Of a DNA stretch of 64,000 nucleotides, positions 1,555 to 52,601 are shown in pieces. The notes under the pieces were generated by a model. The model did not search any database and was not told the DNA's origin. It was given only the letters and a program-made list of their open reading frames with translations. Position 1 is the first letter of the stretch; each line of letters begins with the position of its first letter. Source of the DNA: an archaeon (GTDB lineage: Archaea > Aenigmatarchaeota > Aenigmatarchaeia > GW2011-AR5). The stretch spans positions 30,518 through 94,517 of the forward strand of contig JANQNA010000003.1 of the NCBI GenBank assembly GCA_028279825.1. Reading direction: 5' to 3'. Made by a program: the position numbers and the translations under genes.

Positions 1555-2472
1555 TTATGTGACAACAAACGTCCAAGTTGCCGGTTTCATGGTACCTTCC
1601 GGTACTCCTTTCGGTATCCACGCATCTGCAGTCAGTTTTTCAATGTCGTTAGGTGCCATAGGACCTGCAGTTATCCAGTTCACGTTGGAACAGATACTTC
1701 CGTTGAATGCACCCGATCTTCTGTCAAAGTTGTAGAAGTATACCTTGTCACATTCCCATCCAACTGCCACACATGTACCGTCCAAAAAATGTCCCGCTCT
1801 GGTTATTGAAAAATAACTGAAGTTAGTGTCGCCCCCATTCCTTGTTACACCAGATATAGAAGGCGTTCTTGATTCAATAGTACCGTTGTCAGCATCGTCT
1901 TCTATAGCAAACTGAGCAAGGCTGTCATTACATTGCCCAAGCGTTGGTGACCCTGAACCATTACCGATCGTCCAGTAAAAAGCAGCACTTGCATTCCTCA
2001 AAAACCCTTCACCTACAGGATCATCCACAGCGCTACGATCCGTATTTGCTATTGACTCTGTCCAGTTCCATTCAACTCTACCGGCCCAGTAATAAGTGGA
2101 AGTTGTTTCGTTTCTGAATGTTACAACAGCACCGGCACTGTAATCGCCCGCATATGAAGAACCATAAGGTCTGTCAGTTTCATTTGTTATTGTCGTAACA
2201 TAAGCATACATATTTGATATATTTGAAGACCCTGTGTTTTGAACATCAACTGTTACAGTTCCTGCGGCTGTACCGGGAAGTATGTCAGACCAGTTTATTA
2301 TTGATGGTGAAACTGTAATCTCAGAAAGCTGTCCGATGCTAACTTCAACAGTAACATTGTCATCTCCGTAAGCAAACGTAACGCCGGACGTACCTAAAAT
2401 TATTAACCCACCGATTCCTACGGCTACCAGAAACAGCCAATTTTTTGGCGCGTTTCCTTTGTCAGAAATCAT
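1555..2472 (-). CDS. Secreted protein rich in N-glycosylation sequons, paralog 3
   Basis: The ORF track extends to 2544. The likely true start is Met25 (MISDKGNAPKNWLFLVAVGIGGLIILG, ATG at 2470-2472), because the conserved TATA lies exactly 24 nt upstream of it. Confidence 0.75.
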   Translation of the reverse strand: MISDKGNAPKNWLFLVAVGIGGLIILGTSGVTFAYGDDNVTVEVSIGQLSEITVSPSIINWSDILPGTAAGTVTVDVQNTGSSNISNMYAYVTTITNETDRPYGSSYAGDYSAGAVVTFRNETTSTYYWAGRVEWNWTESIANTDRSAVDDPVGEGFLRNASAAFYWTIGNGSGSPTLGQCNDSLAQFAIEDDADNGTIESRTPSISGVTRNGGDTNFSYFSITRAGHFLDGTCVAVGWECDKVYFYNFDRRSGAFNGSICSNVNWITAGPMAPNDIEKLTADAWIPKGVPEGTMKPATWTFVVT

Positions 2473-2540: not shown

Positions 2541-5243
2541 TCAAACAAAATTTTTTCTTAACCTAACTATTATACCACTTAACTTACTTTTTTCATACCC
2601 TACGCCCTGACCAAGCGACTTTGTACCGCCACCTTTGCCGTTAAGCTCTTCACAAACCTCTTTTACAATTTTCCCGGCGTCTTCTTTTCTGTTTTTGCCA
2701 ACTGATACCAAAACATGAATTTTTTCATTCTTGCCAAACAAAACCAGTATTCTGTCGTCTGCAGATAATTTTTTTGATATGTTCTGCAAAGTTTTTTGAT
2801 CTGCCTCAAGTTCTTGGACCAAAACATTCTCTACTATTTTATCTTCAAGATATTCCGTCATGCCCGATGCTTCTTGTTCTATTGTTTTTTCTTTCTCCTT
2901 TTTGGATTTCTTCCATTTTTCCAGAAGATCTTCCGTACCTTTTACCAGATCCTTTACACCAAGAATTTTTTTACACTCATCAACTATCCTGTCAACCCTT
3001 TCTTCATATTTTTTGGCAGCAGGTCCTGCCACAAAGTCTATACGAGCTATATTGTCCTGTATTCTCTCAGTAGAAACAATAACAATTTTCCCAACCTCTG
3101 AAGTCGAATCTAAGTGTGTCCCGCCGCAGGCCTCTACGTCAGTACCTGCTATATTAACTATGCGCAGTTCTCTGCCTGGCACAGCACCACCCTGGTATAT
3201 ACCAAAGCCATGCTTACTCTCAGCTTCACCCCTGTTAACGAATTTCTTGTCTATACGCTTCGACGAAGAAACAATATCATTTGCCTCTCTTTCTATACGA
3301 TATAATTGTTCATCGGTTATAGCCGTGTAGTGAGTAATATCCAGATGTGCTTTGTCAACATCCTTGAAGGCGCTTGCCTGGTTAATATGATTACCTAAAA
3401 CCCTGCGGGCAGCTTCATTAAGTATATGGGTCCCTGTGTGATGTTTTGCCAGCTGTATTCTTCTTTCCCCGTCTATCTCCACTTTTACAGGCTGGCCTTC
3501 TACAAAACTCGGCTTACTGAGCATTTTATGAACGATTAGTGCACCCTGCTTGAAAACTTCCACAAAGGGTTCTTTGTTTATTGTGCCTGTATCATGCATC
3601 TGGCCGCCTGATGTAGGATAAGCCACTGTCTGATCTAATATAACGTAATTGTCTACTATTTTCTGTACAGTAGCGGTGTTGGAGAATTTTTTGTAATCAG
3701 CAAAGTATAACGCTTTTGTTGCAGTCACATCGCCAAAATCAATATCAACAGCCTTCTTTGTAGCATGCTTCTGCTCATGATGTTCGTGTATATTGGATAT
3801 AAGTGAATAAAAATTATCAGGCACGTCTATCTTTTTTCCTATCTGTTTTGCTTCCCTTAAGACCAGTTCCGGTGGAACACCATGTGAATCATAAAGTTCT
3901 ACAAGATCATCAAGATCAACATCTCTTGAGACCACTCTTTTAACAAGCTGTACTGATTTCTTCTTCGTCTTTTCATACTTTTCCTTTTCGATATCAAAGA
4001 TCTTTTCCACATTATCCAGGTTTTCCTTTAGCTCTGGCACCTGCGGTTTCAGATATTTTGCATGAAGCTCAAAGAGTTTCTTTACATCAATATTCCAGTC
4101 GTTTTTGTCTATAAACCCTAGCATTCTTCTAAAGATAATACGAAGATTATACGAGTCACCAACATTCGATGGTATCGCCCCGTCACTAAACATCAAAAGC
4201 AGAGCCCTGCTATGTTCAGCCACGGAATACAGCCCGGCCAATGGAAGAATATTCTCCTTTAATGTACTCACGTCTGTACCGACTTTTTGTGCAACATCCT
4301 TCCAGGAGTCTTCAACATTTTCTATTTCATCCAGATTTAACAATCCACCATAAGGAACAAACCTGCCAATAAGTTTTTTGTCAAACTTCAGTTTAGTTTG
4401 TTTTAGCAAATGTTCCATTACTGTTGGGAAAGTAGCGTCGTATATTGTGTTTGTACCCTGTGAAAACCAGGCATTTCGTTCCTGCCCCATACCCATGTCC
4501 AGAACCTTCAGATCTAAGTCACGAAGTCCATTATCACTTTGTTCATACATCATGTAGACCTGATTGCCAAGCTCATTGCCTCTCGAAAAGAACTCCATAC
4601 AAGGACCAAGATTACCGCCACCGGCCCAGGCATCTTCATGAAAAGTCACCTCGCTGTTCGGCAGTCCGAGCCCCTTCTTCAGCCAGGCGTGTATATGTTC
4701 CAATACAAGGTTCTGGTCCCACTCCGAAGGCTGTACAAACGCATGTTGTCCTATCATCGAGAAAACAGTATTGTGACTGCCTGTTATCCCGACATTGTCA
4801 ATGTCCACAGTACGAAAGCAATATTGTGGAATAACAAGCCTCTTCGCGGGAGGTTCAACTTCTCCGGATACAACAAACGGCTGGAATGCCGCTATAGAAG
4901 CATTTGTGAATTCCATTGTCGGATTCCATCTAGCAACAATAGGATAACGATTAATAGGAGTATAGCCAAACTTTTCAAACATTTTTGAAAAGCGCTTCCA
5001 GACTTGTATGTAATCAAGTTTCTTTTTCGCCGGAGATTTGCCGATAAAGGCAAAAGGAATCTCGCCGCATGCAGGATCCCCGCAAGTATCGCGACCTTCG
5101 GTCGCCCAAAAAGGTTTTTTACAATTTTTACATTTCCTTCTTTTGTAACCTTCCGTTTGAAGATACTCTGTGGCGTAATACTTCTCAGGATCCTTGTAGA
5201 AGCTGCCTACATACTTCTTTTTCGCTTCCTTATCTGTTAACAT
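2541..5243 (-). CDS. alaS: Alanyl-tRNA synthetase
   Basis: About 900 aa of class II AlaRS. It has the editing-domain HxxxH / CGGTH signature (HHTGTHIL, ACGGTHL), a zinc finger CKNCKK...C near the N-terminus, and a C-terminal DHHA1-like region. Probable start is MLTDKEAKK; the ORF track adds 16 upstream codons. Confidence 0.9.
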   Translation of the reverse strand: MLTDKEAKKKYVGSFYKDPEKYYATEYLQTEGYKRRKCKNCKKPFWATEGRDTCGDPACGEIPFAFIGKSPAKKKLDYIQVWKRFSKMFEKFGYTPINRYPIVARWNPTMEFTNASIAAFQPFVVSGEVEPPAKRLVIPQYCFRTVDIDNVGITGSHNTVFSMIGQHAFVQPSEWDQNLVLEHIHAWLKKGLGLPNSEVTFHEDAWAGGGNLGPCMEFFSRGNELGNQVYMMYEQSDNGLRDLDLKVLDMGMGQERNAWFSQGTNTIYDATFPTVMEHLLKQTKLKFDKKLIGRFVPYGGLLNLDEIENVEDSWKDVAQKVGTDVSTLKENILPLAGLYSVAEHSRALLLMFSDGAIPSNVGDSYNLRIIFRRMLGFIDKNDWNIDVKKLFELHAKYLKPQVPELKENLDNVEKIFDIEKEKYEKTKKKSVQLVKRVVSRDVDLDDLVELYDSHGVPPELVLREAKQIGKKIDVPDNFYSLISNIHEHHEQKHATKKAVDIDFGDVTATKALYFADYKKFSNTATVQKIVDNYVILDQTVAYPTSGGQMHDTGTINKEPFVEVFKQGALIVHKMLSKPSFVEGQPVKVEIDGERRIQLAKHHTGTHILNEAARRVLGNHINQASAFKDVDKAHLDITHYTAITDEQLYRIEREANDIVSSSKRIDKKFVNRGEAESKHGFGIYQGGAVPGRELRIVNIAGTDVEACGGTHLDSTSEVGKIVIVSTERIQDNIARIDFVAGPAAKKYEERVDRIVDECKKILGVKDLVKGTEDLLEKWKKSKKEKEKTIEQEASGMTEYLEDKIVENVLVQELEADQKTLQNISKKLSADDRILVLFGKNEKIHVLVSVGKNRKEDAGKIVKEVCEELNGKGGGTKSLGQGVGYEKSKLSGIIVRLRKNFV

Positions 5244-9944: not shown

Positions 9945-10085
9945 TTGCTCACCAATTTTTGATAATGATATATCGCTCGGGGAATATTTAAAGATTAGAC
10001 CTCTTTTCTACGTGATGGTTCACCATTACACGATGAATCTTTTAATAGTAATAATAGTAATAGAGAATAAAGAATACGATACAAG

Positions 10086-10418
10086 ATGGAAAGCTATATA
10101 AATAGTAGTAATAATAGTAGTAATATGAAAGGAAAAATAGCTCGGATAATAGGACATTTGCAATTTGATGGATGGGTTGCCAATAAAAAACACGCCAGGG
10201 TATTTTTCTATGGAAATTCAAATAAGGATCTTATACATGAATTCGTTAAGGACGTGAGAGACGTTTTTGATTTAAACCCTACCATAAAAAAGGATGGTAA
10301 AATATGGAGAGTCTGCTGTCATAGTGCAAGTGTAGTGAGGGAATTGAATAGAATATCAAGTATGCCAAAAGGCACAGTGTCTCATTGGTTGAGAGGTGAT
10401 AGACGATGTCAAAAATGA
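10086..10418 (+). CDS. Hypothetical protein with low-complexity Ser/Asn N-terminus and weak LAGLIDADG-like resemblance
   Basis: The N-terminus is MESYINSSNNSSN. IARIIGHLQFDGWV ... NSNKDLIHEFVKDV resembles a degenerate LAGLIDADG helix pair. No other motif was recognised. Confidence 0.4.
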   Translation: MESYINSSNNSSNMKGKIARIIGHLQFDGWVANKKHARVFFYGNSNKDLIHEFVKDVRDVFDLNPTIKKDGKIWRVCCHSASVVRELNRISSMPKGTVSHWLRGDRRCQK

Positions 10419-17714: not shown

Positions 17715-18488
17715 TTGGGTGCGGTCATGACCAGAATAATAGGTGTTGTTTCAGGTAAAGGTGGTGTTGGTAAAACAACTATGGTTGCAAATCTTGGTAC
17801 AGCACTGGCAAAACTTGGAAAAGACGTCATAATTCTTGATGCAAATCTTACCACTCCTAGTCTGGGACTTCATCTTGGAGTTCCGTTATACCCTGTAACT
17901 CTTCATGATGTTCTGAAAGGGCACGCAGGAATTAAGGATGCTATCTACTCGCATGAAAGTGGATTAAGAATAATTCCTGCGGGTATATCACTCCGTGATA
18001 TGAGAGGCGTTGACTCTAAAGATCTACCTAATGCTCTGTTAGATCTGTTAGGCAGTGCAGAAATAATCCTTCTTGACGCTTCAGCAGGCTTTGGCCGTGA
18101 ATCCTTGGCAGCCATGGAAGCAGCCGATGAGATCTTGATAGTTACAAATCCTGAAATATCCGCTGTAACGGACGCATTGAAGGCTTCAAAGTTATCCGAA
18201 CAGCTTGGTACAAAAGTGACCGGTGTAATAGTAAACAGAGTTACCGGCAAGAAACACGAAATGAGTGAAAGGGATATTGTCGGGATGCTGGATACTGTAA
18301 ATCTTCTTGGTCAGGTCCCTGAGGACGTAAACGTTCAGCAGGCTGTATCAGGCAGGGTTCCTGTCATCAGATATTCCCCCAAGGCAAAGGCAAGTGGCAG
18401 AATAATGAATATAGCTGCTGAACTTGTAGGCCGTGATCCTGTATACAAGAGCACGCCATGGTACAAGAGGATGTTTCCTTTCAGATAA
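17715..18488 (+). CDS. minD: MinD/ParA-family P-loop ATPase
   Basis: Deviant Walker A GKGGVGKTT and a 257-aa MinD-like layout. Confidence 0.85.
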   Translation: MGAVMTRIIGVVSGKGGVGKTTMVANLGTALAKLGKDVIILDANLTTPSLGLHLGVPLYPVTLHDVLKGHAGIKDAIYSHESGLRIIPAGISLRDMRGVDSKDLPNALLDLLGSAEIILLDASAGFGRESLAAMEAADEILIVTNPEISAVTDALKASKLSEQLGTKVTGVIVNRVTGKKHEMSERDIVGMLDTVNLLGQVPEDVNVQQAVSGRVPVIRYSPKAKASGRIMNIAAELVGRDPVYKSTPWYKRMFPFR

Positions 18489-18552: not shown

Positions 18553-18870
18553 TTAACCGTATAACAAAATACCAAATATTATCAGGATTTCCATGAATAT
18601 CCACATACCGGCGGACAGTATAATCGGCCTGTCTTTATGAAAAAGCCCGTAATTCAACCAAAACATTGAAGTAAAAAGATAGGCCCCCCATGTTATGATG
18701 GATACACCGGATGCGTTTTTATTAATCCATATTTCTACAACTTGTGTTATAGTCATCAGAGGTCCGATAAAGACTATGAAATATATTATCCTGTCTATAA
18801 ACCTTTTTTTCACCGGCTTTACTTTTTGATGTTTTCTGTGATGATGTAGTCCATACAATTTATTGACCAT
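18553..18870 (-). CDS. Hypothetical small membrane protein (3 TM)
   Basis: Hydrophobic helices. The probable start is MVNKLYG. Confidence 0.45.
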   Translation of the reverse strand: MVNKLYGLHHHRKHQKVKPVKKRFIDRIIYFIVFIGPLMTITQVVEIWINKNASGVSIITWGAYLFTSMFWLNYGLFHKDRPIILSAGMWIFMEILIIFGILLYG

Positions 18871-30522: not shown

Positions 30523-31578
30523 TTAGTAGAAAACGCGCCACAATATCAGTTCAAAAACGTAAGGATCATTGTCGAAAATGATCATATTTGACGCAAAGTG
30601 TATTGGTGCGGGTGTTTTGGTCACTGTGTCAAGACTGTAACTCTCACCGCTTCCCCACATGACTGCTGATTTCAAAAGATCGTCAATCTTCCTTGTGTTT
30701 GTACTGTTATGATCAACTCTTACGTAATCACCAAACCAGATAGCACGGCCGTTTCCGTTTATAGCATTGCCTCTGGCCCTGACGTAAGTCTTGCGGTTCA
30801 CAGGATCCAGGCCGGACATCATATCCTTCCCGTCACCAATGGCCAAGACCCCGTTGGAGTTGAAGCCGTTGAACTGGACAGCTGTCATATCCACTAAGTC
30901 AGTCTGGTTCACACCGGCGTAGTATCTTGCTGCATAGTGTGAAACATTTCCCGGATCAAACACTTCATAGAATATAGCAGTATCAGAACCTATTATACCG
31001 GCCCATGTAAGATTGAACAGCTGGCCTATGTAACCCTCTATGTCTGCCTGTGCAAGATTACTCAACAATATGACTGTGCCCCCATCCTCAACAAAATTCT
31101 CTATAGGTATCTTATTAGGCTCTATGTCAAGCTTGTAAAAGAAAAACACTATGTTGGTTTCTTCCGGTATATCATCAGTACTTACATTGGTTATTCGTAT
31201 GCTGGTCGGCCGGCCCTTGTACGTGAAATCCAAGGGATCCAGTATGGTATTGAGCTCCAGCAGATCCGTATACCCGCAGCTTACACAACCCACGTATATT
31301 ATGTTATTGGGTATGCCTTTTACGTTAACAGAGAAGTCAATGGTTTTTGGCAGGATGTTTGACAGGTATGTGTTAAGACCGTCACTGTCATCGTTTTGAA
31401 CATAAATTTTCAAGTCACCGCTAAAGTAAGAACTCTGCAGCACATCCTGGGAAATTACCTGCAAAGCGGAGTCTTCCCATTGGGAATCCGGCACAGTTTC
31501 TATGAAGAAAAATGTAAGAGAGGTAAGAATAATAATTGAAGCCACAATCGATTCCAGTATTCTTGCAAAACCTTTCAT
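30523..31578 (-). CDS. Prepilin-like protein (class III signal peptide MKG/FARILESIVASIIIL)
   Basis: The N-terminus is K-G followed by a hydrophobic helix. The rest is an NxS/T-rich extracellular domain. It is the last gene of the pilus operon. Confidence 0.55.
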   Translation of the reverse strand: MKGFARILESIVASIIILTSLTFFFIETVPDSQWEDSALQVISQDVLQSSYFSGDLKIYVQNDDSDGLNTYLSNILPKTIDFSVNVKGIPNNIIYVGCVSCGYTDLLELNTILDPLDFTYKGRPTSIRITNVSTDDIPEETNIVFFFYKLDIEPNKIPIENFVEDGGTVILLSNLAQADIEGYIGQLFNLTWAGIIGSDTAIFYEVFDPGNVSHYAARYYAGVNQTDLVDMTAVQFNGFNSNGVLAIGDGKDMMSGLDPVNRKTYVRARGNAINGNGRAIWFGDYVRVDHNSTNTRKIDDLLKSAVMWGSGESYSLDTVTKTPAPIHFASNMIIFDNDPYVFELILWRVFY

Positions 31579-31579
31579 T

Positions 31580-32101
31580 TTACATCACTGTTACCTTCAA
31601 ACGTATCATAGGCGTTATAGTTGAATTAAGAACGGCAAGCCTGACCGTGTGAAACTGGTGTCTTATATTGCTGCCGCCCGGATGTTCACATATAACACTG
31701 GATGTCCCTATGACCGGTGAATTGTCCATGTAAGTTGCCTCTATCTTTATTTCATTTCTGTAATTCATACCTAGCCTGTTCTTTGTGGCGTTATACCCTC
31801 CCGGACTGTTGCATATCTGGTTCATCTTGTCAAGCTTGTTTATGTCGATAAAGTATCTTTTCCCGGTAGAAAAACCAAATCGGTAGATGTCATCGATTAT
31901 TTCACCGTTCCAGTCCCTTGGGTAACCTTCGTCGAAGAGCAGCAATTCAGAGTACTGATGACTTTTTGATTTTATCCCCTCAGCCACTGCACTGTCATGA
32001 AATAGCGGTATATTGCCTACTATCATAGCTGCAACAAACGATATCGTAGTTATGAATACAAATACTGATATTATGAATTCTACTTCTACAATCCCTTTCA
32101 T
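31580..32101 (-). CDS. Prepilin-like protein (MKG/IVEVEFIISVFVFI)
   Basis: Class III signal-peptide-like N-terminus. 173 aa. Confidence 0.55.
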   Translation of the reverse strand: MKGIVEVEFIISVFVFITTISFVAAMIVGNIPLFHDSAVAEGIKSKSHQYSELLLFDEGYPRDWNGEIIDDIYRFGFSTGKRYFIDINKLDKMNQICNSPGGYNATKNRLGMNYRNEIKIEATYMDNSPVIGTSSVICEHPGGSNIRHQFHTVRLAVLNSTITPMIRLKVTVM

Positions 32102-32112
32102 AGAAGCACCAC

Positions 32113-33081
32113 CTAAATAATGCCCGTTTTTACAACTATTATGAATATCAGGAAACCGCTTACAAGCATTATCATGCTGTGCTTCATTCCAACGGCCATT
32201 GAATCTGAACCAATCTGACCGGCTATCAATCCGGAAAAGAATCCCTGTATCAGTATCATTGTCAGAAACAATGACTTATAATAAGACGCTGCATCACCCT
32301 CGGATCCTATGTCAAATGCAGTGGCTATTGAACCGAATATGTAACATCCACTGCATGCACTGTTTGATGTACCCACACAGGCAGAACACGGATTAGGATT
32401 GAATCCCTGCAGGCCAAAAGACCCGCTGCTTGTCTGTGCCTGGAGAAGCGGTATCAGGAATTTTATAAGAGCGATTGTTATGCCAAGGAATATGAAGAAT
32501 ATGGCATACATCATCATTACTTGTTGATTTAATAATGAAGCCTTTTCCTGCTGAGCCTCCTTGATAGATTCGATGTTGTTTGAAAGCGACTCCATCGTAG
32601 CCTCTACACTGCCGCCGGATTTGTTTGCCTGGTCAATAATAATCAGTGATCTTACAATAGTTTTGCTGTCTGCCACCCGTTCCCTGAAACTTCTAAGAAC
32701 CTTGTCCATGGGAACATTCCAGCTTAGCTGGTCGCTCATCTTCTTTATTTCCTTTGAAAGCATACCGTAGTCAGACTTTGCCGCAGAATGCAGGGCCTGT
32801 ATCAGTGACAGGTCAGCCCTCTGATTCTCCGCAAGATCCCTCAAAAAGTTCGGGAATTCACGTTCATAAGATCTTATCCTCTTCAGTCTAATGAACTTGT
32901 AGACACTGAAAGGAACAAAGATTATCAGCAGACTCAGGAACAGCATGTTTATCAGCAAAGGCGTGTTCCCGATAGCAGCAGATAGAGCAATAAGTCCGAA
33001 TGCAATCGCAATCGATATAATCAGTATTGACTGGCTCTTGCTCATCTTCTTTTTCTCTTTCTTCTCTTTGTGTTTTTTCAT
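32113..33081 (-). CDS. Type IV pilus/Tad-like inner-membrane platform protein (TadB/TadC/FlaJ family), part 1
   Basis: Polytopic membrane protein with a cytoplasmic helical domain in the T2SSF-like layout. It pairs with the adjacent second platform gene. Confidence 0.6.
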   Translation of the reverse strand: MKKHKEKKEKKKMSKSQSILIISIAIAFGLIALSAAIGNTPLLINMLFLSLLIIFVPFSVYKFIRLKRIRSYEREFPNFLRDLAENQRADLSLIQALHSAAKSDYGMLSKEIKKMSDQLSWNVPMDKVLRSFRERVADSKTIVRSLIIIDQANKSGGSVEATMESLSNNIESIKEAQQEKASLLNQQVMMMYAIFFIFLGITIALIKFLIPLLQAQTSSGSFGLQGFNPNPCSACVGTSNSACSGCYIFGSIATAFDIGSEGDAASYYKSLFLTMILIQGFFSGLIAGQIGSDSMAVGMKHSMIMLVSGFLIFIIVVKTGII

Positions 33082-33088
33082 ATAATCA

Positions 33089-33943
33089 CTAAGTAGGGTC
33101 TGCTGCCCTTATTAACACTATGAAAGCCACCGAAATAAACGGCAATAATATAAACACGACCATTGTCTGCACAAGTATAGTTCCAAGACCTGCAGATATT
33201 GTTGAGATTATGGATGAAAGTACTATGAAGAATATTGAACCGGTTATGATAAGGGTCAGGTACATTTCTACGTAAAGTGAAAGATCCTGCGAGTATTTTC
33301 TTATCCTTCTCCTGTAGTCATTCATGTACTCATCACCTTTCTCTTTCAGAAAAGTACCAAGATTTCCCCCGGTCATCATCATCGTGTTGATGCCGTAAAG
33401 AAGTTCCTTCAGGTCGTTGGACGGCGTTAATTTTGCCTGTTTCTTTATGGCTGCTGATGTCGTCATGCCAAAGAATTCAACGTCACGAACTATACTTTCA
33501 GCTTCTTTTGTCAGTTCTCCGTATTCCTTGAACTGGCTTATCGTTTTGAACACGCTTATCGGCGGCACATTCGAACTGGCTATTGTTGACATATAGGAGA
33601 CGGTAAACGGAAGCACTTTCCTTATTTTCCTGTCCCTGCCTTTTGATGCAGCTGTCGGATATGAATAGAAAAGGAAAAACAGCAGACCTGATATGGTCAG
33701 TGCCATGGTAATACCGAGTATAACCGATATTATAGGATTCATAAAGAGGCCGAACAGGAAAGAAAGTATCAAAGTCTCCATGATAAATGTCACAACCGTC
33801 GTGAACAGGGATATAGAAAGGTATTCTTCAAGTGTATAGTTTATGTTGGCCTTTTTGAGATCGTCTCTCATTTCAATGAAATAAGGCCGTATAGATTTGC
33901 TGAGCCCGCCAAAGAATTTGTATGATGCGTCTGCATAACTCAT
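33089..33943 (-). CDS. Type IV pilus/Tad-like inner-membrane platform protein (TadB/TadC/FlaJ family), part 2
   Basis: T2SSF-like layout (cytoplasmic domain plus 3 TM segments). It overlaps the ATPase gene by 4 nt. Confidence 0.6.
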   Translation of the reverse strand: MSYADASYKFFGGLSKSIRPYFIEMRDDLKKANINYTLEEYLSISLFTTVVTFIMETLILSFLFGLFMNPIISVILGITMALTISGLLFFLFYSYPTAASKGRDRKIRKVLPFTVSYMSTIASSNVPPISVFKTISQFKEYGELTKEAESIVRDVEFFGMTTSAAIKKQAKLTPSNDLKELLYGINTMMMTGGNLGTFLKEKGDEYMNDYRRRIRKYSQDLSLYVEMYLTLIITGSIFFIVLSSIISTISAGLGTILVQTMVVFILLPFISVAFIVLIRAADPT

Positions 33944-35724
33944 AACTCACCCTCAATTCTTCCTAGGAGGAAATCGGGCGAAAGATAGAACATACTTATT
34001 ACCGAGGCAATTTTTCTGTAGTCTGTTATTCCACGATTCACGAGCCATTTAAGGACCTTTGCACGGTTTTCGATTTCTCGCTTCACGTCTCTCTCAGTAA
34101 GTCCAACAGTATCTGAGATTTTTTTCAACAATGCACTCTTTCCTTCAAAATGAAACTTGTCGCGTTTTGCATCCCATGTCAACAGTTCATTTGTTATAGG
34201 TAATTTTGCCTCTTGGTCGTAGCCAACCACTTCCGTTACAGAGAAAATGCGTCTGTTGTACCTTCTGCCCTGCTTGACACGTTTTATAAAAACAATAAGG
34301 TCAAGGTTCTGCAGCAGGTTAGGTGCCAGACTTATAGGCGGTGATGTCATTCTGTCGAAAAGTTTGGAAAAGTTTTCCGCGTGTATTGTTGACAAACCAG
34401 GGTGACCTACAGCCATTTGCTGGAAAAGCACGTAGGCCTCTTTACCTCTGACTTCCCCTACTATGATATAATCAGGTCTCTGCCTCAGAGACTCCCTTAA
34501 AAGTTCAAACATGTCTACTCTCCCTTCCTCAGATATTGCCGTTCTGGCAACTTCAGGCACCCAGTGTGCGTGAGGGAGTCTGAGTTCGGACGTATCTTCT
34601 ATGCTTATGATTTTCATCTGAGGTTTGATGAACAGTGAGAGAACGTTAAGCAGCGAAGTTTTTCCGGAAGCAGTTCCGCCTGAAATAAGCACAGACGAGC
34701 CGTGTTCTATCAGGAACCAGAAGTACGCCATCATTCTTAGATCAGATGTACCATACCGTATCGTATCAACTGGTGTCATAGGTTTATCTGAGAACATTCT
34801 TATTGTAAAGTTACTGCCGTTTCTTGCTATGTCACTTCCAAGCGTTGCCTGCAGCCTTGCACCGCCCGGCAGGGTACCATCCAGTAATGGTCTTGCGACA
34901 GATATCGTCTTTCCTGATCTCTCTGAAAGTTTGTTTACAAACAGATCAAGCTCTTCAGAATCCTTGAATACCATATTGGTTCTTATCGAACCGAACTGCG
35001 GGTTTCTGTGATACACGTATATAGGAATATTGACGCCGTCACACGAGATATCCTCTATGTTCTTGTCATTCATGAGAGGTTCCAGTTTTTCTAGACCGAT
35101 GAAATCTCTTATTACGTAGTACCTTAGTATTTCTTCAGTATTTTTATCTACCTTGACTCTGAAGTATGCAAGTGCTCTCTCAAAGGCAGAGTTGAGGTAG
35201 CTAACAGCATCAGTTTTTCTTATCTGTGAGAAGTTTATGTCAAGTTTCTCCTGTATGTATTCTTTTATCTCCATCAGAGTTTTCTGGTTGTTGCCTATAG
35301 GCGGCTCCACAACGTTATAGATGACTTCACCGCTTTTTTTATCAAAGAAAATATGTGCGTAAGACATGACCTTCTCACCTTTCTTTGGCTCTGAAGGCAT
35401 AAGCGGATACTTCATATTCACAAGCCGCACGTCATCTATCTCGGGTATTGTAAGCTTTTCAGTATGAATCTTTGGGATTGTTATACCCTCAATTTCGGAT
35501 TTTTCTGCTATCTTCCTTGGTTCCCTGTGTCCATGGACAAATCTGCGCTGATCTATAAATTGTATGAAAGAACCGCCTGGAGGTTGCTGTTGCTGCTGTT
35601 GCATAGGCTGCTGCCGCCCGGTTATCACACCTGTCTTTATGGCGGCAATTTCCTCTGGAGTTCTTGGTTTTAGTACGAATTTCTTCCCGCCCTGTATTTT
35701 CAGCAAAAGTTTTTTATTGACCAT
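33940..35724 (-). CDS. Type IV pilus assembly ATPase (FlaI/TadA/VirB11 family) with N-terminal poly-Q tract
   Basis: Walker A ISGGTASGKTS, Asp box and His box (EDTSELRLPHAHWV), plus an N-terminal QQPMQQQQQQPPGG. Confidence 0.85.
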   Translation of the reverse strand: MVNKKLLLKIQGGKKFVLKPRTPEEIAAIKTGVITGRQQPMQQQQQQPPGGSFIQFIDQRRFVHGHREPRKIAEKSEIEGITIPKIHTEKLTIPEIDDVRLVNMKYPLMPSEPKKGEKVMSYAHIFFDKKSGEVIYNVVEPPIGNNQKTLMEIKEYIQEKLDINFSQIRKTDAVSYLNSAFERALAYFRVKVDKNTEEILRYYVIRDFIGLEKLEPLMNDKNIEDISCDGVNIPIYVYHRNPQFGSIRTNMVFKDSEELDLFVNKLSERSGKTISVARPLLDGTLPGGARLQATLGSDIARNGSNFTIRMFSDKPMTPVDTIRYGTSDLRMMAYFWFLIEHGSSVLISGGTASGKTSLLNVLSLFIKPQMKIISIEDTSELRLPHAHWVPEVARTAISEEGRVDMFELLRESLRQRPDYIIVGEVRGKEAYVLFQQMAVGHPGLSTIHAENFSKLFDRMTSPPISLAPNLLQNLDLIVFIKRVKQGRRYNRRIFSVTEVVGYDQEAKLPITNELLTWDAKRDKFHFEGKSALLKKISDTVGLTERDVKREIENRAKVLKWLVNRGITDYRKIASVISMFYLSPDFLLGRIEGEL

Positions 35725-35734
35725 AAGAAACCAC

Positions 35735-36169
35735 TTAATCCACTGACACTCTCTGTATTGTGATTTGCTCGTTTTTCAGTATCTCTACATACTGAGCAGT
35801 GCTCACAACCTCACTATTATTGATAACATTGTCGTAGTTTATATTAAAAAGTTGCCTCTCGATTCTCACGTCATTACTAAGTGTATTTATTATAACTTTC
35901 CCGCCATCAGCGTCTTTTATTGAAATTTTGTAGATCTCATCGGAAAGCATTATTGGGATTCTTAATCTAATGGAAGTGTTTTCCGACTGGGATGCCTTTA
36001 GAACAGCCTCTGCAACTAGATCTGACACACCCTCAAGCTGGTCGTACAGTGTAATTTCTCTTACAGTATCCTCAACATTTGCAAAATTTACGATAACATA
36101 TACTGTTATCAAAACACCAAGTCCGAATAGAATCATTTCGCTTAAAATTCTGTACTGCCCTTTCATCAT
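35735..36169 (-). CDS. Prepilin-like protein with KGQ motif (MMKG/QYRILSEMILFGLGVLI)
   Basis: Class III signal peptide with Gln at +1, as in EppA-processed euryarchaeal pilins. 144 aa. Confidence 0.6.
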   Translation of the reverse strand: MMKGQYRILSEMILFGLGVLITVYVIVNFANVEDTVREITLYDQLEGVSDLVAEAVLKASQSENTSIRLRIPIMLSDEIYKISIKDADGGKVIINTLSNDVRIERQLFNINYDNVINNSEVVSTAQYVEILKNEQITIQRVSVD

Positions 36170-36801
36170 ACTATACTTATTCTCACTGTACTCTTTATTA
36201 GAGTTCGTCCGTTATTATCGGCGGGTAAAATCGTCTGATCGCCCACGCTTTCAATAACAATTGTCCTGTCAAGGCCGCCTGAAGCGCCGTTACCGGTCAA
36301 TTCAATGACAAAATCCCTTGTTGTCTTGTCATTTCTGAGCTGTATGTATTCAAGCACATAGTCTGTCTCGTAAGATGTTTCCCCGTATTTTGTGCTCTTT
36401 ACTGTATAAATTACAGGATCGTCAACACCCCAGACGCCGTATCTTATTGTTGCATTGTATGGATCTAATTTTAGATTCGTAGATGAAGTCCTGCCCAGAG
36501 GTATGGGCGAGTCTATTGCATATATCGTGCCTTCTGTGGCAATTGATAGTTCAATTATTTTGCCGTCAAACCTGATTATGCCTGGTAATGTCACAACAAG
36601 CTGGTCTCTGCCGCCGTTATTTGCCACAAATTTTATCTTTGTATCCAAATCATGCATGAACGTTTCTGCTGTTTCCAGCAAAGAATTATCCTTGTTTTTC
36701 TGCACTAATGGTATACCCCAGAAATAAACAGAACCCACTACACCTATGAGTATTCCGGATATCAAGACAGCCGATAATGCTTCCTGTTGACCCTTTTTCA
36801 T
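36166..36801 (-). CDS. Prepilin-like protein with KGQ motif (MKKG/QQEALSAVLISGILIGVV)
   Basis: Class III signal peptide. 211 aa. It is the first gene of the pilus operon and overlaps the next gene by 4 nt. Confidence 0.6.
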   Translation of the reverse strand: MKKGQQEALSAVLISGILIGVVGSVYFWGIPLVQKNKDNSLLETAETFMHDLDTKIKFVANNGGRDQLVVTLPGIIRFDGKIIELSIATEGTIYAIDSPIPLGRTSSTNLKLDPYNATIRYGVWGVDDPVIYTVKSTKYGETSYETDYVLEYIQLRNDKTTRDFVIELTGNGASGGLDRTIVIESVGDQTILPADNNGRTLIKSTVRISIV

Positions 36802-36853
36802 AAATGTAATTATATCCGGGCCAATATAAATGTGATACAGTCAAGAAAACGGC

Positions 36854-37279
36854 TTACATAGGTCGTCTGGCAGGAGGTCTAACCTGCCTTGATTTCATAG
36901 CTGACAGAAGCATGGCATTTATTCTCTTCTCTAACTTCTGTATTCTGTCTTCCACATCTGAAGGTGTTGTTGTTTCCTCTTCTTCCTCATCCTCACTCTT
37001 GGCTTTCTCCTGGTTCATCTCTGTTATTTCTACTCTTTCCAAAAAGTTGCTCATTTTTCCAGTCAGCTGAGTAACGTTTGAGGATAATTCTGAAACTCTG
37101 TTGATCATTTCAGAATTTATTTTTACAACCTCGTCTACAATTCTTTGGTTTGTCCTTACAACATCTATGAGCTCTTTAACCATCTCTGTGCCCGAACCGC
37201 TTTTCTCTAATCTGTCAAGTCGCTTCTCCATTTTTCTCAAAGGACTGACAGGGATAAGTTCGTACTCTTCTTCATTCAT
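36854..37279 (-). CDS. Hypothetical acidic coiled-coil protein
   Basis: 141 aa with heptad repeats and a Glu-rich stretch. Confidence 0.45.
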   Translation of the reverse strand: MNEEEYELIPVSPLRKMEKRLDRLEKSGSGTEMVKELIDVVRTNQRIVDEVVKINSEMINRVSELSSNVTQLTGKMSNFLERVEITEMNQEKAKSEDEEEEETTTPSDVEDRIQKLEKRINAMLLSAMKSRQVRPPARRPM

Positions 37280-51773: not shown

Positions 51774-52601
51774 TCACTTACCTATATCATGAATAATCAT
51801 GCCAGTTTTACTTATCTCAACGGGATGCACATCCTCGTTGTTTATTGTATTTCGCATTTTCCTGATTAACAGGTTCCTTGAAAACTGGCCGCCCATGGAT
51901 TCAAAATTAATGAGCAAAATACCGTCTGCAACAAACTCTGATATGGTATCTCTCGAAATATATCTGCCTCTCTCCGCGGACTCGGATATCAACAGTGTTG
52001 TGCAGTCATTTTCCATTAAACGAAGCGAATCAACAAAATTGTAGATGAATCTCTTGACTATCAGGTCTCCCATTATAGGCGGTGAAAAGAAGGAATTTTT
52101 CTTCATTATATCAACCAACGCCATGTCCTTCACATAATTATAAACAGGAGCATTTATTGCCAGCGAAGATATCGAGTCAACCACGAGCCTTTTTATTTTA
52201 TTCTCGGAAACGTTGTTGATTAATTCATCCAGTGCAGCGAAATCCAGATTCTTTATTGGCATATGCTTTATTTCCAGCATACCCTCGTTTATTAGCGGTT
52301 CAAGGTCCCATCCAAACTGCAGTGCCTGTTCCTTGAGTGATTCCACAGGTTGTCCAAAACTAACATATAACCCTTTTTCTTTGAACTCAGTAACGCCGTT
52401 GTACAGATACTCCAGACTAAAAATAGTCTTGCCTGTTCCCGGAGTTCCTGTTAATAGAATAGTACTGCCGCGCGGAAATCCGCCCTCAATCAGCTCGTCA
52501 AAACCCTTTATACCTGTTTTAGTGCGATCTTTAACCATTAAATCACTACTAGTAATATCCCTCAAGCAGTTTATAAAAGTTCTAGAATCAATCTTTCCCA
52601 T
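51774..52601 (-). CDS. KaiC-like / RecA-superfamily ATPase
   Basis: GIKGFDELIEGGFPRGSTILLTGTPGTGKT (Walker A in KaiC/RadA context). 275 aa. Confidence 0.7.
   Translation of the reverse strand: MGKIDSRTFINCLRDITSSDLMVKDRTKTGIKGFDELIEGGFPRGSTILLTGTPGTGKTIFSLEYLYNGVTEFKEKGLYVSFGQPVESLKEQALQFGWDLEPLINEGMLEIKHMPIKNLDFAALDELINNVSENKIKRLVVDSISSLAINAPVYNYVKDMALVDIMKKNSFFSPPIMGDLIVKRFIYNFVDSLRLMENDCTTLLISESAERGRYISRDTISEFVADGILLINFESMGGQFSRNLLIRKMRNTINNEDVHPVEISKTGMIIHDIGK

Follow-up and report, generated by a model that had tools for sequence, protein, structure and literature searches.

A conserved type IV pilus-like operon with a two-gene platform in Aenigmatarchaeota, probably nearest to the euryarchaeal clade 2 systems

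Which archaeal surface machinery is encoded by the seven genes found between positions 36801 and 30523, and is its platform really divided over two genes? The original prediction described an Epd/Tad-like type IV pilus operon with an unusual split platform, four prepilins and a poly-glutamine ATPase. We examined the locus within the complete stretch of 64,000 nucleotides (64 kb, hereafter the window) and across its relatives in Candidatus Aenigmatarchaeota (DPANN). With a probability of about 0.8, we read it as a phylum-wide, vertically inherited archaeal type IV pilus (T4P) assembly operon, nearest to the euryarchaeal "clade 2" systems with own pilin sets. Gene content, domain identities, a genuine split of the platform, conservation of class III motifs, synteny and predicted folds form the basis of this reading. 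The features are the following:

36854..37279, minus strand: conserved 141-aa coiled-coil protein adjoining the operon (neighbourhood comparison)
36802..36853, minus strand: putative promoter region of the operon, with the TATA-like box TTTATATT (sequence inspection)
36166..36801, minus strand: pA, pilin-like, 211 aa, start MKKGQQ (ORF, orthologue motif and model)
35735..36169, minus strand: pB, pilin-like, 144 aa, start MMKGQY (ORF and orthologue motif)
33940..35724, minus strand: assembly ATPase of the FlaI/GspE/VirB11 family, clade-2-like, 594 aa, with a variable N-terminal extension (profiles)
35584..35601, minus strand: Q6 run, CAA CAG CAG CAA CAG CAA, in a Q/P/M-rich linker of the ATPase (DNA)
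33089..33943, minus strand: pfN, platform N-terminal half, TadC-like, 284 aa, one T2SSF domain (Pfam)
32113..33081, minus strand: pfC, platform C-terminal half, TadB-like, 322 aa, one T2SSF domain (Pfam)
32344..32388, minus strand: NPC-x2-C-x7-C-x2-C motif in the TM3-TM4 loop of pfC (orthologue alignment)
31580..32101, minus strand: pC, pilin-like, 173 aa, start MKGIVEVEF (ORF and orthologue motif)
30523..31578, minus strand: pD, large pilin-like protein, 351 aa, start MKGFARILE (ORF and predicted fold)

The seven co-directional open reading frames (ORFs) are all present and intact in the proposed succession of two pilins, an ATPase, two platform genes and two further pilins (pA, pB, ATPase, pfN, pfC, pC, pD). 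They are tightly packed or overlapping, with -4 to +11 nt between neighbours, and their domains are confirmed by Pfam and their motifs by orthologues. The box TTTATATT (36830-36823) is located 21 nt upstream of the pA ATG and would represent the operon promoter according to the archaeal TATA consensus; comparable boxes occur upstream of the coiled-coil gene and of NMD3. The type IV pilus-like nature of the operon is also supported, by T2SSE, T2SSF and class III motifs. The ATPase matches Pfam T2SSE with 106 bits (E 2e-30) and Walker A (GGTASGKTS), Walker B (IIVGEVRG) and His box (GHPGLSTIHA) motifs are readable in its translation, while each platform gene harbors exactly one T2SSF domain (E 9.5e-15 for pfN and 9e-15 for pfC) and 4-5 TM-like segments.

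In the window, pfN and pfC are separated by just 7 nt and lie in different frames, as they might if a sequencing or assembly frameshift had split a single platform gene. Such a frameshift had been named beforehand as fatal to the prediction, as had pilin-like N-termini that are ordinary Sec signal peptides. However, pfN ends with a TAG immediately followed by an in-frame TGA, and its homologues, which form more than 120 clusters sharing 56-100% identity, measure 261-293 aa (mostly 284-287 aa), none of these clusters being near full FlaJ length. Moreover, pfN and pfC are separate and never fused in 42 of 42 related loci, where each of the three relative frames is represented and the distance between the two genes ranges from -4 to +369 nt, once two still more negative values are set aside as longest-ORF artefacts. 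The frameshift fails on homologue lengths, gaps and frames, and we dismiss it; these comparisons of gene structure show that the two-gene platform is genuine.

The two proteins map onto successive halves of FlaJ and UpsF: pfN aligns to positions 8-248 of the 555 of the FlaJ model, and pfC to positions 257-452 of the same model and 182-406 of 465 in another. The predicted order, TadC-like then TadB-like, is thereby recovered: Denise et al. (2019; PMC6668835) treat the N-half as TadC and the C-half as TadB. A recent duplication of a platform gene was ruled out, as pfN and pfC share no BLASTP similarity and match different halves of FlaJ. A profile search with pfN against the PDB returned chance matches only. 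All four cysteines of the pfC motif are kept in 36 of 36 orthologues, and the loop bearing them would be extracytoplasmic given the positive-inside rule and the known cytoplasmic position of T2SSF.

The split is genuine but cannot be called unusual, since it has been published for Epd, Tad, clade 2 and DPANN systems. EpdJ and EpdK of M. maripaludis form such a platform (PMC4371748), the trait unites the Epd-like and Tad clade (Denise et al., 2019), many euryarchaeal clade 2 loci carry two tadC-like genes (PMC4858521), and DPANN islands are labelled TadC plus TadB in another survey (PMC6393860). The literature explains the split as an ancient gene fission common to Epd, Tad and many euryarchaeal systems, and therefore it opens no new question. 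Because a two-gene platform is already known from several archaeal pilus systems, the locus is an ordinary representative of these.

The four pilin-like proteins all start with M-K-G (M-K-K-G in pA) followed by a hydrophobic helix, which corresponds to a class III signal conserved over about 35 Aenigmatarchaeota species. K(-2) and G(-1) are found in at least 94% of orthologues in all four families, mostly with a 3-aa leader, and each family has its own invariant positions, such as Q(+1) in pB, E(+5)/F(+6) in pC and F(+1) in pD. These motifs are not a chance occurrence, because they are kept in the 31-37 orthologues available for each family. The Sec signal alternative is dismissed together with the frameshift on leader length and motif conservation: leaders of only 3 aa leave no room for a Sec n-region, G(-1) and K(-2) hardly vary, and the hydrophobic segment is retained within the mature protein as one of its conserved parts. 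A six-frame scan of the window for N-termini with [KR][GA] ahead of a hydrophobic stretch recovered pA-pD. The other matches were a real gene at 1555-2472 that does not resemble class III and three short or antisense ORFs, and the scan yielded no further convincing class III-like ORF of at least 40 aa in the 64 kb. Under the published FlaFind pattern, all four proteins would come out FlaFind-negative.

Among the four, pA exhibits K/R at -2 and G/A at -1 over 34 orthologues, which share the conserved helix ALSAVLISGILIGVVGSVYFWGxPLIQKNKD, and Q at +1 in 27 of these 34 (V/I/L in the other 7). Its AF2 model (pLDDT 87) combines a helix at 5-62 with a beta-sandwich, 40 of 49 family members match Pfam DUF7289, and all of its 101 homologues that bear an organism name belong to Aenigmatarchaeota or to an unclassified archaeon. 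Being encoded by the first gene, behind a TATA box of its own, and combining the best conserved helix with a compact beta-sandwich as its head, pA is likely the main filament subunit, although the true major subunit could be encoded outside the locus. The signal of pB (M-M-K-G|QYRI..E) has Q(+1) in 37 of 37 orthologues, and the window protein and all five tested orthologues match DUF7266 over nearly their full length at sub-threshold scores; pB is probably a minor pilin. For pC (M-K-G|IVEVEF), E(+5) is present in 33 of 34 orthologues and replaced by D in the remaining one, Phe(+6) is invariant, Q(+1) occurs in 3 of 34, and no Pfam family was matched. Finally, in pD (M-K-G|FARILE) the AlphaFold model starts, like that of pA, with a long helix, and the predicted fold continues with an alpha/beta domain resembling GATase1/ThuA/GIFT and, at the C-terminus, a beta domain, making pD a candidate for the tip or for an adhesin. 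A distant relationship links the pilins to the haloarchaeal families DUF7289, DUF7266 and DUF7288, with Pfam matches mostly below gathering thresholds; we found no literature on these three families.

The affiliation of the machinery is best approached through its ATPase. The best PDB match is AfGspE (2oap), with 377 bits over residues 134-591, compared to 281 bits for FlaI and 135 bits for CpaF. The PilB3_C profile is passed (31.7 bits, cutoff 27), whereas the TadA model TIGR03819 (160, cutoff 373) and the NCBIfam FlaI model (406, cutoff 550) are not. AfGspE belongs to clade 2, arCOG01817 (Makarova et al., 2016, Fig. S4). The ATPase thus appears closest to the clade-2 AfGspE and not to CpaF, in what is a ranking by similarity to AfGspE, FlaI and CpaF rather than a phylogeny. 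Cluster names of ten ATPase representatives (Aenigmarchaeota "TadA" and "FlaI", and one Thermoprotei hypothetical) are too sparse for placement.

An alternative is that the locus belongs to the Epd-like/Tad lineage proper (clade 1 of Makarova, "Epd-like" of Denise) and depends on EppA. The split platform with one T2SSF per gene and the N-half first would fit, as would the K-G-Q cleavage context that pA and pB share with EpdB-E (PMC4371748, Table 1), the Glu(+5)/Phe(+6) of pC together with its occasional Q(+1), and an archaeal MinD gene located 12 kb from the operon. Against it stand the ATPase scores given above and the two tadC-like genes of many clade 2 loci. Furthermore, the four window pilins and the tested orthologues have no DUF361/PF04021 match at E <=0.1, the pilins measure 144-351 aa and no short Epd/Flp-like pilin of about 60-70 aa is present at the locus, position +1 is hydrophobic in pC and pD, and clade 1 has been reported only from methanococci, methanobacteria, Methanopyrus and thermococci. 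We consider this affiliation quite unlikely, and of the "Epd/Tad-like" label only the architecture is retained, the ATPase and the pilin families pointing elsewhere. Similarly, the Gln(+1) noticed in two pilins as a hallmark of EppA substrates is indeed present in pA and pB, but it is not obligatory, as the V/I/L of seven pA orthologues indicates.

No A24-type prepilin peptidase (PibD/FlaK/EppA) candidate was found within the 64 kb window, which extends the predicted lack of such a gene in the locus. This follows from a scan for TM segments, because the sole ORF with at least 3 TM-like segments beyond pfN and pfC is antisense to the NMD3/aIF1A genes and is regarded as spurious.

Compared with known systems, the clade 2 T4P (A. 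fulgidus AfGspE/AF0659; H. volcanii PilB3/PilC3 and the PilB4-type locus, which has its own pilin set; Makarova et al., 2016) share with this operon an AfGspE-like ATPase with PilB3_C, several distinct pilin genes flanking the ATPase/platform module, a stand-alone MinD gene, pilins akin to the haloarchaeal DUF families and, in many loci, two tadC-like genes. The operon differs from them by its DPANN host, the hypervariable N-terminal extension of 45-183 aa of the ATPase, the ThuA/GATase1-like head of pD, the invariant tetracysteine loop of pfC and a fixed position among housekeeping genes throughout the phylum. The Epd pili of M. maripaludis (EpdL, EpdJ and EpdK, EppA, EpdA-E) also have two half-size platform proteins, a single ATPase, several minor pilins and the K-G-Q context, in two pilins here. 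Unlike them, our locus and window lack EppA, the locus has neither a DUF361 match nor a short major pilin, its ATPase leans toward clade 2, and +1 is I/V or F in two of the four pilins; as for the Epd-type pattern Q(+1) ... E(+5), regular Q(+1) is confined to pA and pB and E(+5) to pC. Bacterial Tad/Flp (type IVc) systems resemble the operon by a platform divided between two proteins with one T2SSF domain apiece, which are homologues of the N-half (TadC) and the C-half (TadB), and by a single ATPase with no retraction ATPase. They are set apart by their CpaF-type ATPase, from which ours is distant, and by our archaeal host; no Flp-size pilin, TadV peptidase or RcpA secretin was found in the locus or among the scanned window ORFs. 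In bacterial Tad loci tadB precedes tadC, whereas the N-half precedes the C-half in this operon.

The closest published description concerns the DPANN "dark matter" T4P islands, which combine an ATPase with TadC and TadB (Makarova, Wolf and Koonin, 2019, Fig. 2A) and whose description our locus matches. The unannotated signal-peptide proteins around these islands are inferred there to be pilins (PMC6393860). The islands are represented there by a generic example only, and the present analysis adds the phylum-wide synteny, four pilin families defined by their motifs, the fold predicted for pD and the cysteine motif of pfC. No AR5/Aenigmarchaeota entries were found in the supplements of Makarova et al. 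(2016).

Genes of this kind are commonly annotated as a partial archaellum, and the possibility that the locus encodes a reduced archaellum, thus a motility apparatus, has to be weighed. The Aenigmarchaeota MAG annotations published by Li et al. list FlaI, FlaJ and FlaG, pfN homologues are named "flagellar protein FlaJ" by JGI, and the FlaI and FlaJ models are the top NCBIfam matches. These matches are nonetheless well below their cutoffs (406 versus 550 for FlaI; 94 and 63 versus 550 and 400 for FlaJ), and the ATPase is nearer to AfGspE than to FlaI. The locus contains no ArlH/FlaH. A single KaiC-like gene occurs in the window (51774-52601), and it scores 43, versus 215 for ArlH. No archaellin, FlaF or FlaG family was matched, because pA-pD match no Pfam family beyond DUF7289, DUF7266 and DUF7288 at E <=0.1. 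Finally, archaella all have a single FlaJ (PMC4858521), whereas the platform is split here. An archaellum is thus extremely improbable.

The poly-glutamine ATPase of the original prediction is only partly upheld. The tract QQPMQQQQQQPPGG is indeed present at residues 38-51 of the ATPase, and it is the only poly-Q run of at least 5 in any frame of the window. Among 38 orthologues, the region N-terminal to the core is of low complexity and the longest Q run in the others does not exceed 3. A functional family feature was ruled out, the run being unique to the genome of the window among these orthologues, and Q6 is best viewed, on this alignment, as a lineage-specific local expansion in a hypervariable low-complexity linker.

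The inheritance of the operon was assessed in 41 distinct related species-representative loci of GTDB. The order thermosome, coiled-coil gene, pA, pB, ATPase, pfN, pfC, pC, pD, NMD3 holds in essentially all of them, L021, L030 and L036 being the exceptions, the housekeeping neighbourhood extending to eIF1A and topoisomerase VI, and every locus with a phylum name belongs to Aenigmatarchaeota. Horizontal acquisition was ruled out by this synteny and by a GC content equal to that of the flanks. As far as gene order and composition tell, the operon appears to be vertically inherited and phylum-wide in Candidatus Aenigmatarchaeota. The coiled-coil gene adjoins it in all but one locus whose sequence extends that far upstream, with an inverted orientation in L005 and L017. 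Its product has no family match in profile searches and is possibly a cytoplasmic accessory of the pilus system.

A mechanism may be proposed, in which cleavage, filament formation, individual pilin roles and adhesion or host attachment are inferred. The four pilin-like proteins would insert into the membrane through their N-terminal hydrophobic helix, and an A24 prepilin peptidase encoded elsewhere would cut the very short leader (usually just M-K-G). The hexameric GspE/FlaI-type ATPase would dock on a platform of two half-size one-T2SSF proteins, which together would equal one FlaJ/PilC, and ATP hydrolysis would raise the pilins from the membrane into a helical filament bound by the N-terminal helices. 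In such a filament pA would be the likely main subunit and pB, pC and pD the likely minor pilins, priming or capping the fibre, with pD displaying its ThuA/GATase1-like domain and plausibly binding a surface or a host cell.

Another product is conceivable, namely a short pseudopilus or a bindosome-like array showing functional domains such as the pD head, or a machinery for DNA uptake. The four substrates are fairly large and a small major pilin is absent from the locus, the predicted pD fold is enzyme-like or carbohydrate-module-like, BasE and BasF come second or third among the NCBIfam matches, and type IV pili of M. maripaludis have been linked to natural transformation in one report (PMC10133366). 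We regard these options as very unlikely, given that BasE reaches 221 for a cutoff of 1000 and BasF 61 for a cutoff of 1300, that the compact helix and beta-sandwich of pA are typical of filament subunits and the polymerisation helix is strongly conserved, and that a domain for binding solutes or DNA was found in none of the components. A T4P assembly operon nearest to clade 2 remains our preferred reading. Counting against it are the lack of an A24 peptidase candidate within the window, the lack at the locus of a small, abundant major pilin of the EpdE or Flp kind, the mostly sub-threshold Pfam matches of the pilins and their expected FlaFind-negative outcome.

DPANN archaea presumably live attached to hosts, and their surface machinery is mostly unannotated. 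One T4P operon proves here to be a fixed, apparently vertically inherited part of every related Aenigmatarchaeota genome found, which corrects the common "partial archaellum" annotation, provides names and motifs for four "hypothetical" pilin families and proposes pD as a candidate tip adhesin. A bolder proposal, which we regard as unlikely, is that the operon would build the attachment organelle, to host or surface, underlying the episymbiosis of Aenigmatarchaeota, with pD as a glycan-binding tip adhesin and the invariant, predicted extracytoplasmic CxxC-x7-CxxC loop of pfC as a metal- or redox-dependent element, not described before, at the base of the pilus, and that DPANN split-platform systems would be the closest archaeal sister of Epd/Tad. 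If this last relationship were true, it would give a sharper picture of how Tad pili reached Bacteria.

Seven minus-strand ORFs (36801-30523) make up the locus, with neighbouring genes spaced by -4 to +11 nt:

pA, minus strand, pilin-like protein of 211 aa, N-terminus MKKGQQEALSAV...
pB, minus strand, pilin-like protein of 144 aa, N-terminus MMKGQYRILSE...
ATPase, minus strand, 594 aa
pfN, minus strand, N-half (TadC-like) platform protein of 284 aa
pfC, minus strand, C-half (TadB-like) platform protein of 322 aa
pC, minus strand, pilin-like protein of 173 aa, N-terminus MKGIVEVEFII...
pD, minus strand, pilin-like protein of 351 aa, N-terminus MKGFARILESI...

The original prediction described this operon accurately, as its seven ORFs, their domains and the QQPMQQQQQQPPGG tract of the ATPase were all recovered. 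TATA-like boxes were read 21-30 nt before the start codons (ATG) of pA, NMD3 and the coiled-coil gene, so that pA to pD probably form a separate seven-gene transcription unit according to the archaeal promoter consensus.

Exactly one T2SSF domain (Pfam) was found in each of pfN and pfC, which cover positions 8-248 and 257-452, respectively, of the 555-position FlaJ model (NCBIfam); together they amount to one FlaJ. The 3' end of pfN reads TAG-TGA and pfC starts 7 nt downstream in a different frame. A frameshift in a single gene was considered and the split proved real, the two halves being separate in 42/42 loci with all three relative frames represented and a gap of -4 to +369 nt, apart from two larger negative values that are artefacts of taking the longest ORF. 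The pfN homologues listed all measure 261-293 aa, mostly 284-287 aa, and none of them approaches the full length of FlaJ. Since BLASTP detected no similarity between pfN and pfC, the platform halves are considered ancient, and their origin by recent duplication or from a broken gene is ruled out.

Such a platform was flagged as unusual at the outset. M. maripaludis encodes EpdL along with EpdJ and EpdK, with K-G-Q processing sites (Pohlschroder and Esquivel, 2015; PMC4371748), and thus has two platform genes, as here. The TadB/TadC and Epd platform pairs were attributed to gene fission, the N-half being TadC and the C-half TadB (Denise et al., 2019; PMC6668835). Likewise, DPANN islands in which TadC and TadB accompany an ATPase and unannotated pilins, as in this locus, were described (Makarova et al., 2019; PMC6393860). 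Given these descriptions of Epd, Tad and DPANN systems, the feature was already documented. EpdL, EpdJ and EpdK are presumably MMP0040, MMP0039 and MMP0038, respectively. The TM3-TM4 loop of pfC harbors a further element (residues 232-246):

32344-32388, minus strand, tetracysteine motif N-P-C-x2-C-x7-C-x2-C

This motif is invariant in 36/36 Aenigmatarchaeota orthologues and the loop that bears it is probably extracytoplasmic; no comparable element is known from FlaJ, TadB or PilC.

The ATPase exhibits T2SSE (E 2e-30) and PilB3_C (31.7 bits, cutoff 27) domains (Pfam), and its top NCBIfam model is FlaI, with 406 bits, under the 550 cutoff. Against solved structures, it scores 377 bits with A. 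fulgidus GspE (2oap), 281 bits with FlaI and 135 bits with CpaF. AfGspE/AF0659 is listed as the typical ATPase of clade 2, arCOG01817 (Makarova et al., 2016). Affinities of the ATPase and of the pilins place the locus nearer to euryarchaeal clade 2 than to Epd or Tad, and the proposed designation "Epd/Tad-like" therefore suits the split platform but not these other components; a deeper kinship with the Epd/Tad lineage may exist. Many relatives of the ATPase in a 50%-identity representative library (P0229-P0361) are 1000-1600 aa long and align to it over 2-3 separate stretches, which suggests intein insertions in this family.

The segment leading from a short conserved N-terminal motif to the ATPase core spans 45-183 aa and is of low complexity in 38/38 orthologues, being Q/M/P-rich in close relatives. 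Among these 38 orthologues, no other ATPase exceeds three consecutive Gln residues, and the poly-Q codons are a mixture of CAG and CAA. The tract is thus present and unusual for the family, as initially stated; it is no family trait but a lineage-specific expansion within a disordered linker.

In each of the four pilin families, at least 94% of the 31-37 orthologues carry K at position -2 and G at position -1, and the usual leader is M-K-G only. Signatures differ by family: Q+1 (27/34 orthologues) followed by ALSAVLISGILIGVVGSVYFWG in pA, Q+1 (37/37) in pB, E+5 (33/34) plus F+6 in pC, and F+1 (30/31) in pD. A Sec signal at these N-termini is ruled out, because it is incompatible with a leader of only three residues. 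The N-terminal Gln of the M. maripaludis major pilin is reportedly present as pyroglutamate. AlphaFold2 models were built with family alignments. That of pA (pLDDT 87) presented a 58-residue N-terminal helix and a beta-sandwich, and Foldseek returned no significant match for it; in that of pD (pLDDT 89), a helical linker follows the N-terminal helix and leads to an alpha/beta domain, with a beta domain at the C-terminus. In Pfam, DUF7289 is matched by 40/49 pA family members, DUF7266 is matched almost full length, slightly below threshold, by pB and 5/5 tested orthologues, the match of pD to DUF7288 is weak and pC has none; PF04021 (DUF361) is absent from the matches of all four.

FlaG, FlaI and FlaJ were reported in most Aenigmarchaeota MAGs (Li et al., 2021), as would be expected if the locus were an archaellum. 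However, archaellum models score below their cutoffs here, the platform is split, no archaellin family is among the Pfam matches of pA, pB, pC and pD, and ArlH is absent, the KaiC-like gene of the window being a different protein:

51774-52601, minus strand, KaiC-domain ATPase of 275 aa, not ArlH/FlaH (43 bits vs cutoff 215)

We thus retain a type IV pilus, and this locus is likely the source of the FlaG/FlaI/FlaJ annotation. Besides pfN and pfC, no credible polytopic membrane protein was found in the 64-kb window, which confirms that the locus lacks a prepilin peptidase.

Archaeal housekeeping genes flank the operon: the thermosome gene lies upstream of it, and the downstream side carries NMD3, aIF1A, a KH protein and topoisomerase VI B/A. 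GC content is uniform between locus and flanks. Homologues of pfN form more than 120 clusters (identity 56-100%), the named ones belonging to Candidatus Aenigmatarchaeota/Aenigmarchaeota, "archaeon GW2011_AR5" or plain "archaeon". Scanning one genome per GTDB species yielded 41 distinct loci, and every phylum-bearing title was Aenigmatarchaeota. The order thermosome, 141-aa coiled-coil gene, pA, pB, ATPase, pfN, pfC, pC, pD, NMD3 is kept in almost all loci (exceptions: L021, L030 and L036). The most divergent locus (L047, pfN identity 43%) retains the arrangement and encodes at the pA position (3343-3774) a shorter, differently starting pilin of 143 aa (N-terminus MILLKGISSIIVVILLL..., divided as MILLKG and ISSIIVVILLLLISV...); the first pilin gene is therefore exchangeable, the rest of the operon being kept. 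Other genes of the window are the following:

36854-37279, minus strand, coiled-coil protein of 141 aa with N-terminal EEEYELIPVSPLRKMEKRL motif, acidic E-run and own TATA-like box
17727-18488, plus strand, stand-alone archaeal MinD (TIGR01969, 260 bits, cutoff 201.75)
598-1494 and 1555-2472, minus strand, adjacent paralogues of 298 and 305 aa with hydrophobic N-terminus
18553-18870, minus strand, MtN3_slv protein of 105 aa with one domain (27.2 bits, cutoff 23.7)

Among related genomes in which that flank is present, almost all have the coiled-coil gene next to the pilus operon (inverted in L005 and L017), and its product may act as a cytoplasmic accessory to the pilus system. In the literature, archaeal T4P and Tad systems are associated with the MinD-type ATPase family (arCOG00589/TadZ-like). 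The paralogues share a FAYGDDNVTV(D/E)VS motif after the hydrophobic N-terminus, lack any Pfam match and may be surface or S-layer-type proteins; the MtN3_slv protein is, by its domain, a predicted SemiSWEET-like sugar transporter. A trinucleotide tract (10043-10125), AT-rich and made of imperfect (AGT/AAT)n repeats, spans the start of an ORF at 10086 that begins MESYINSSNNSSN.

Gene content, platform split, signal motifs, folds and synteny are demonstrated. The DPANN genome studied here carries an archaeal type IV pilus operon that is well preserved and ordinary. Its phylum-wide fixed location, four defined pilin families, ThuA-like pilin pD and CxxC-x7-CxxC loop of pfC are modestly new. As in the T4P characterised in archaea and bacteria, the leaders would be cleaved and the pilins assembled into a filament with pA as major subunit and pB, pC and pD as minor or tip pilins, and this pilus would serve in adhesion.
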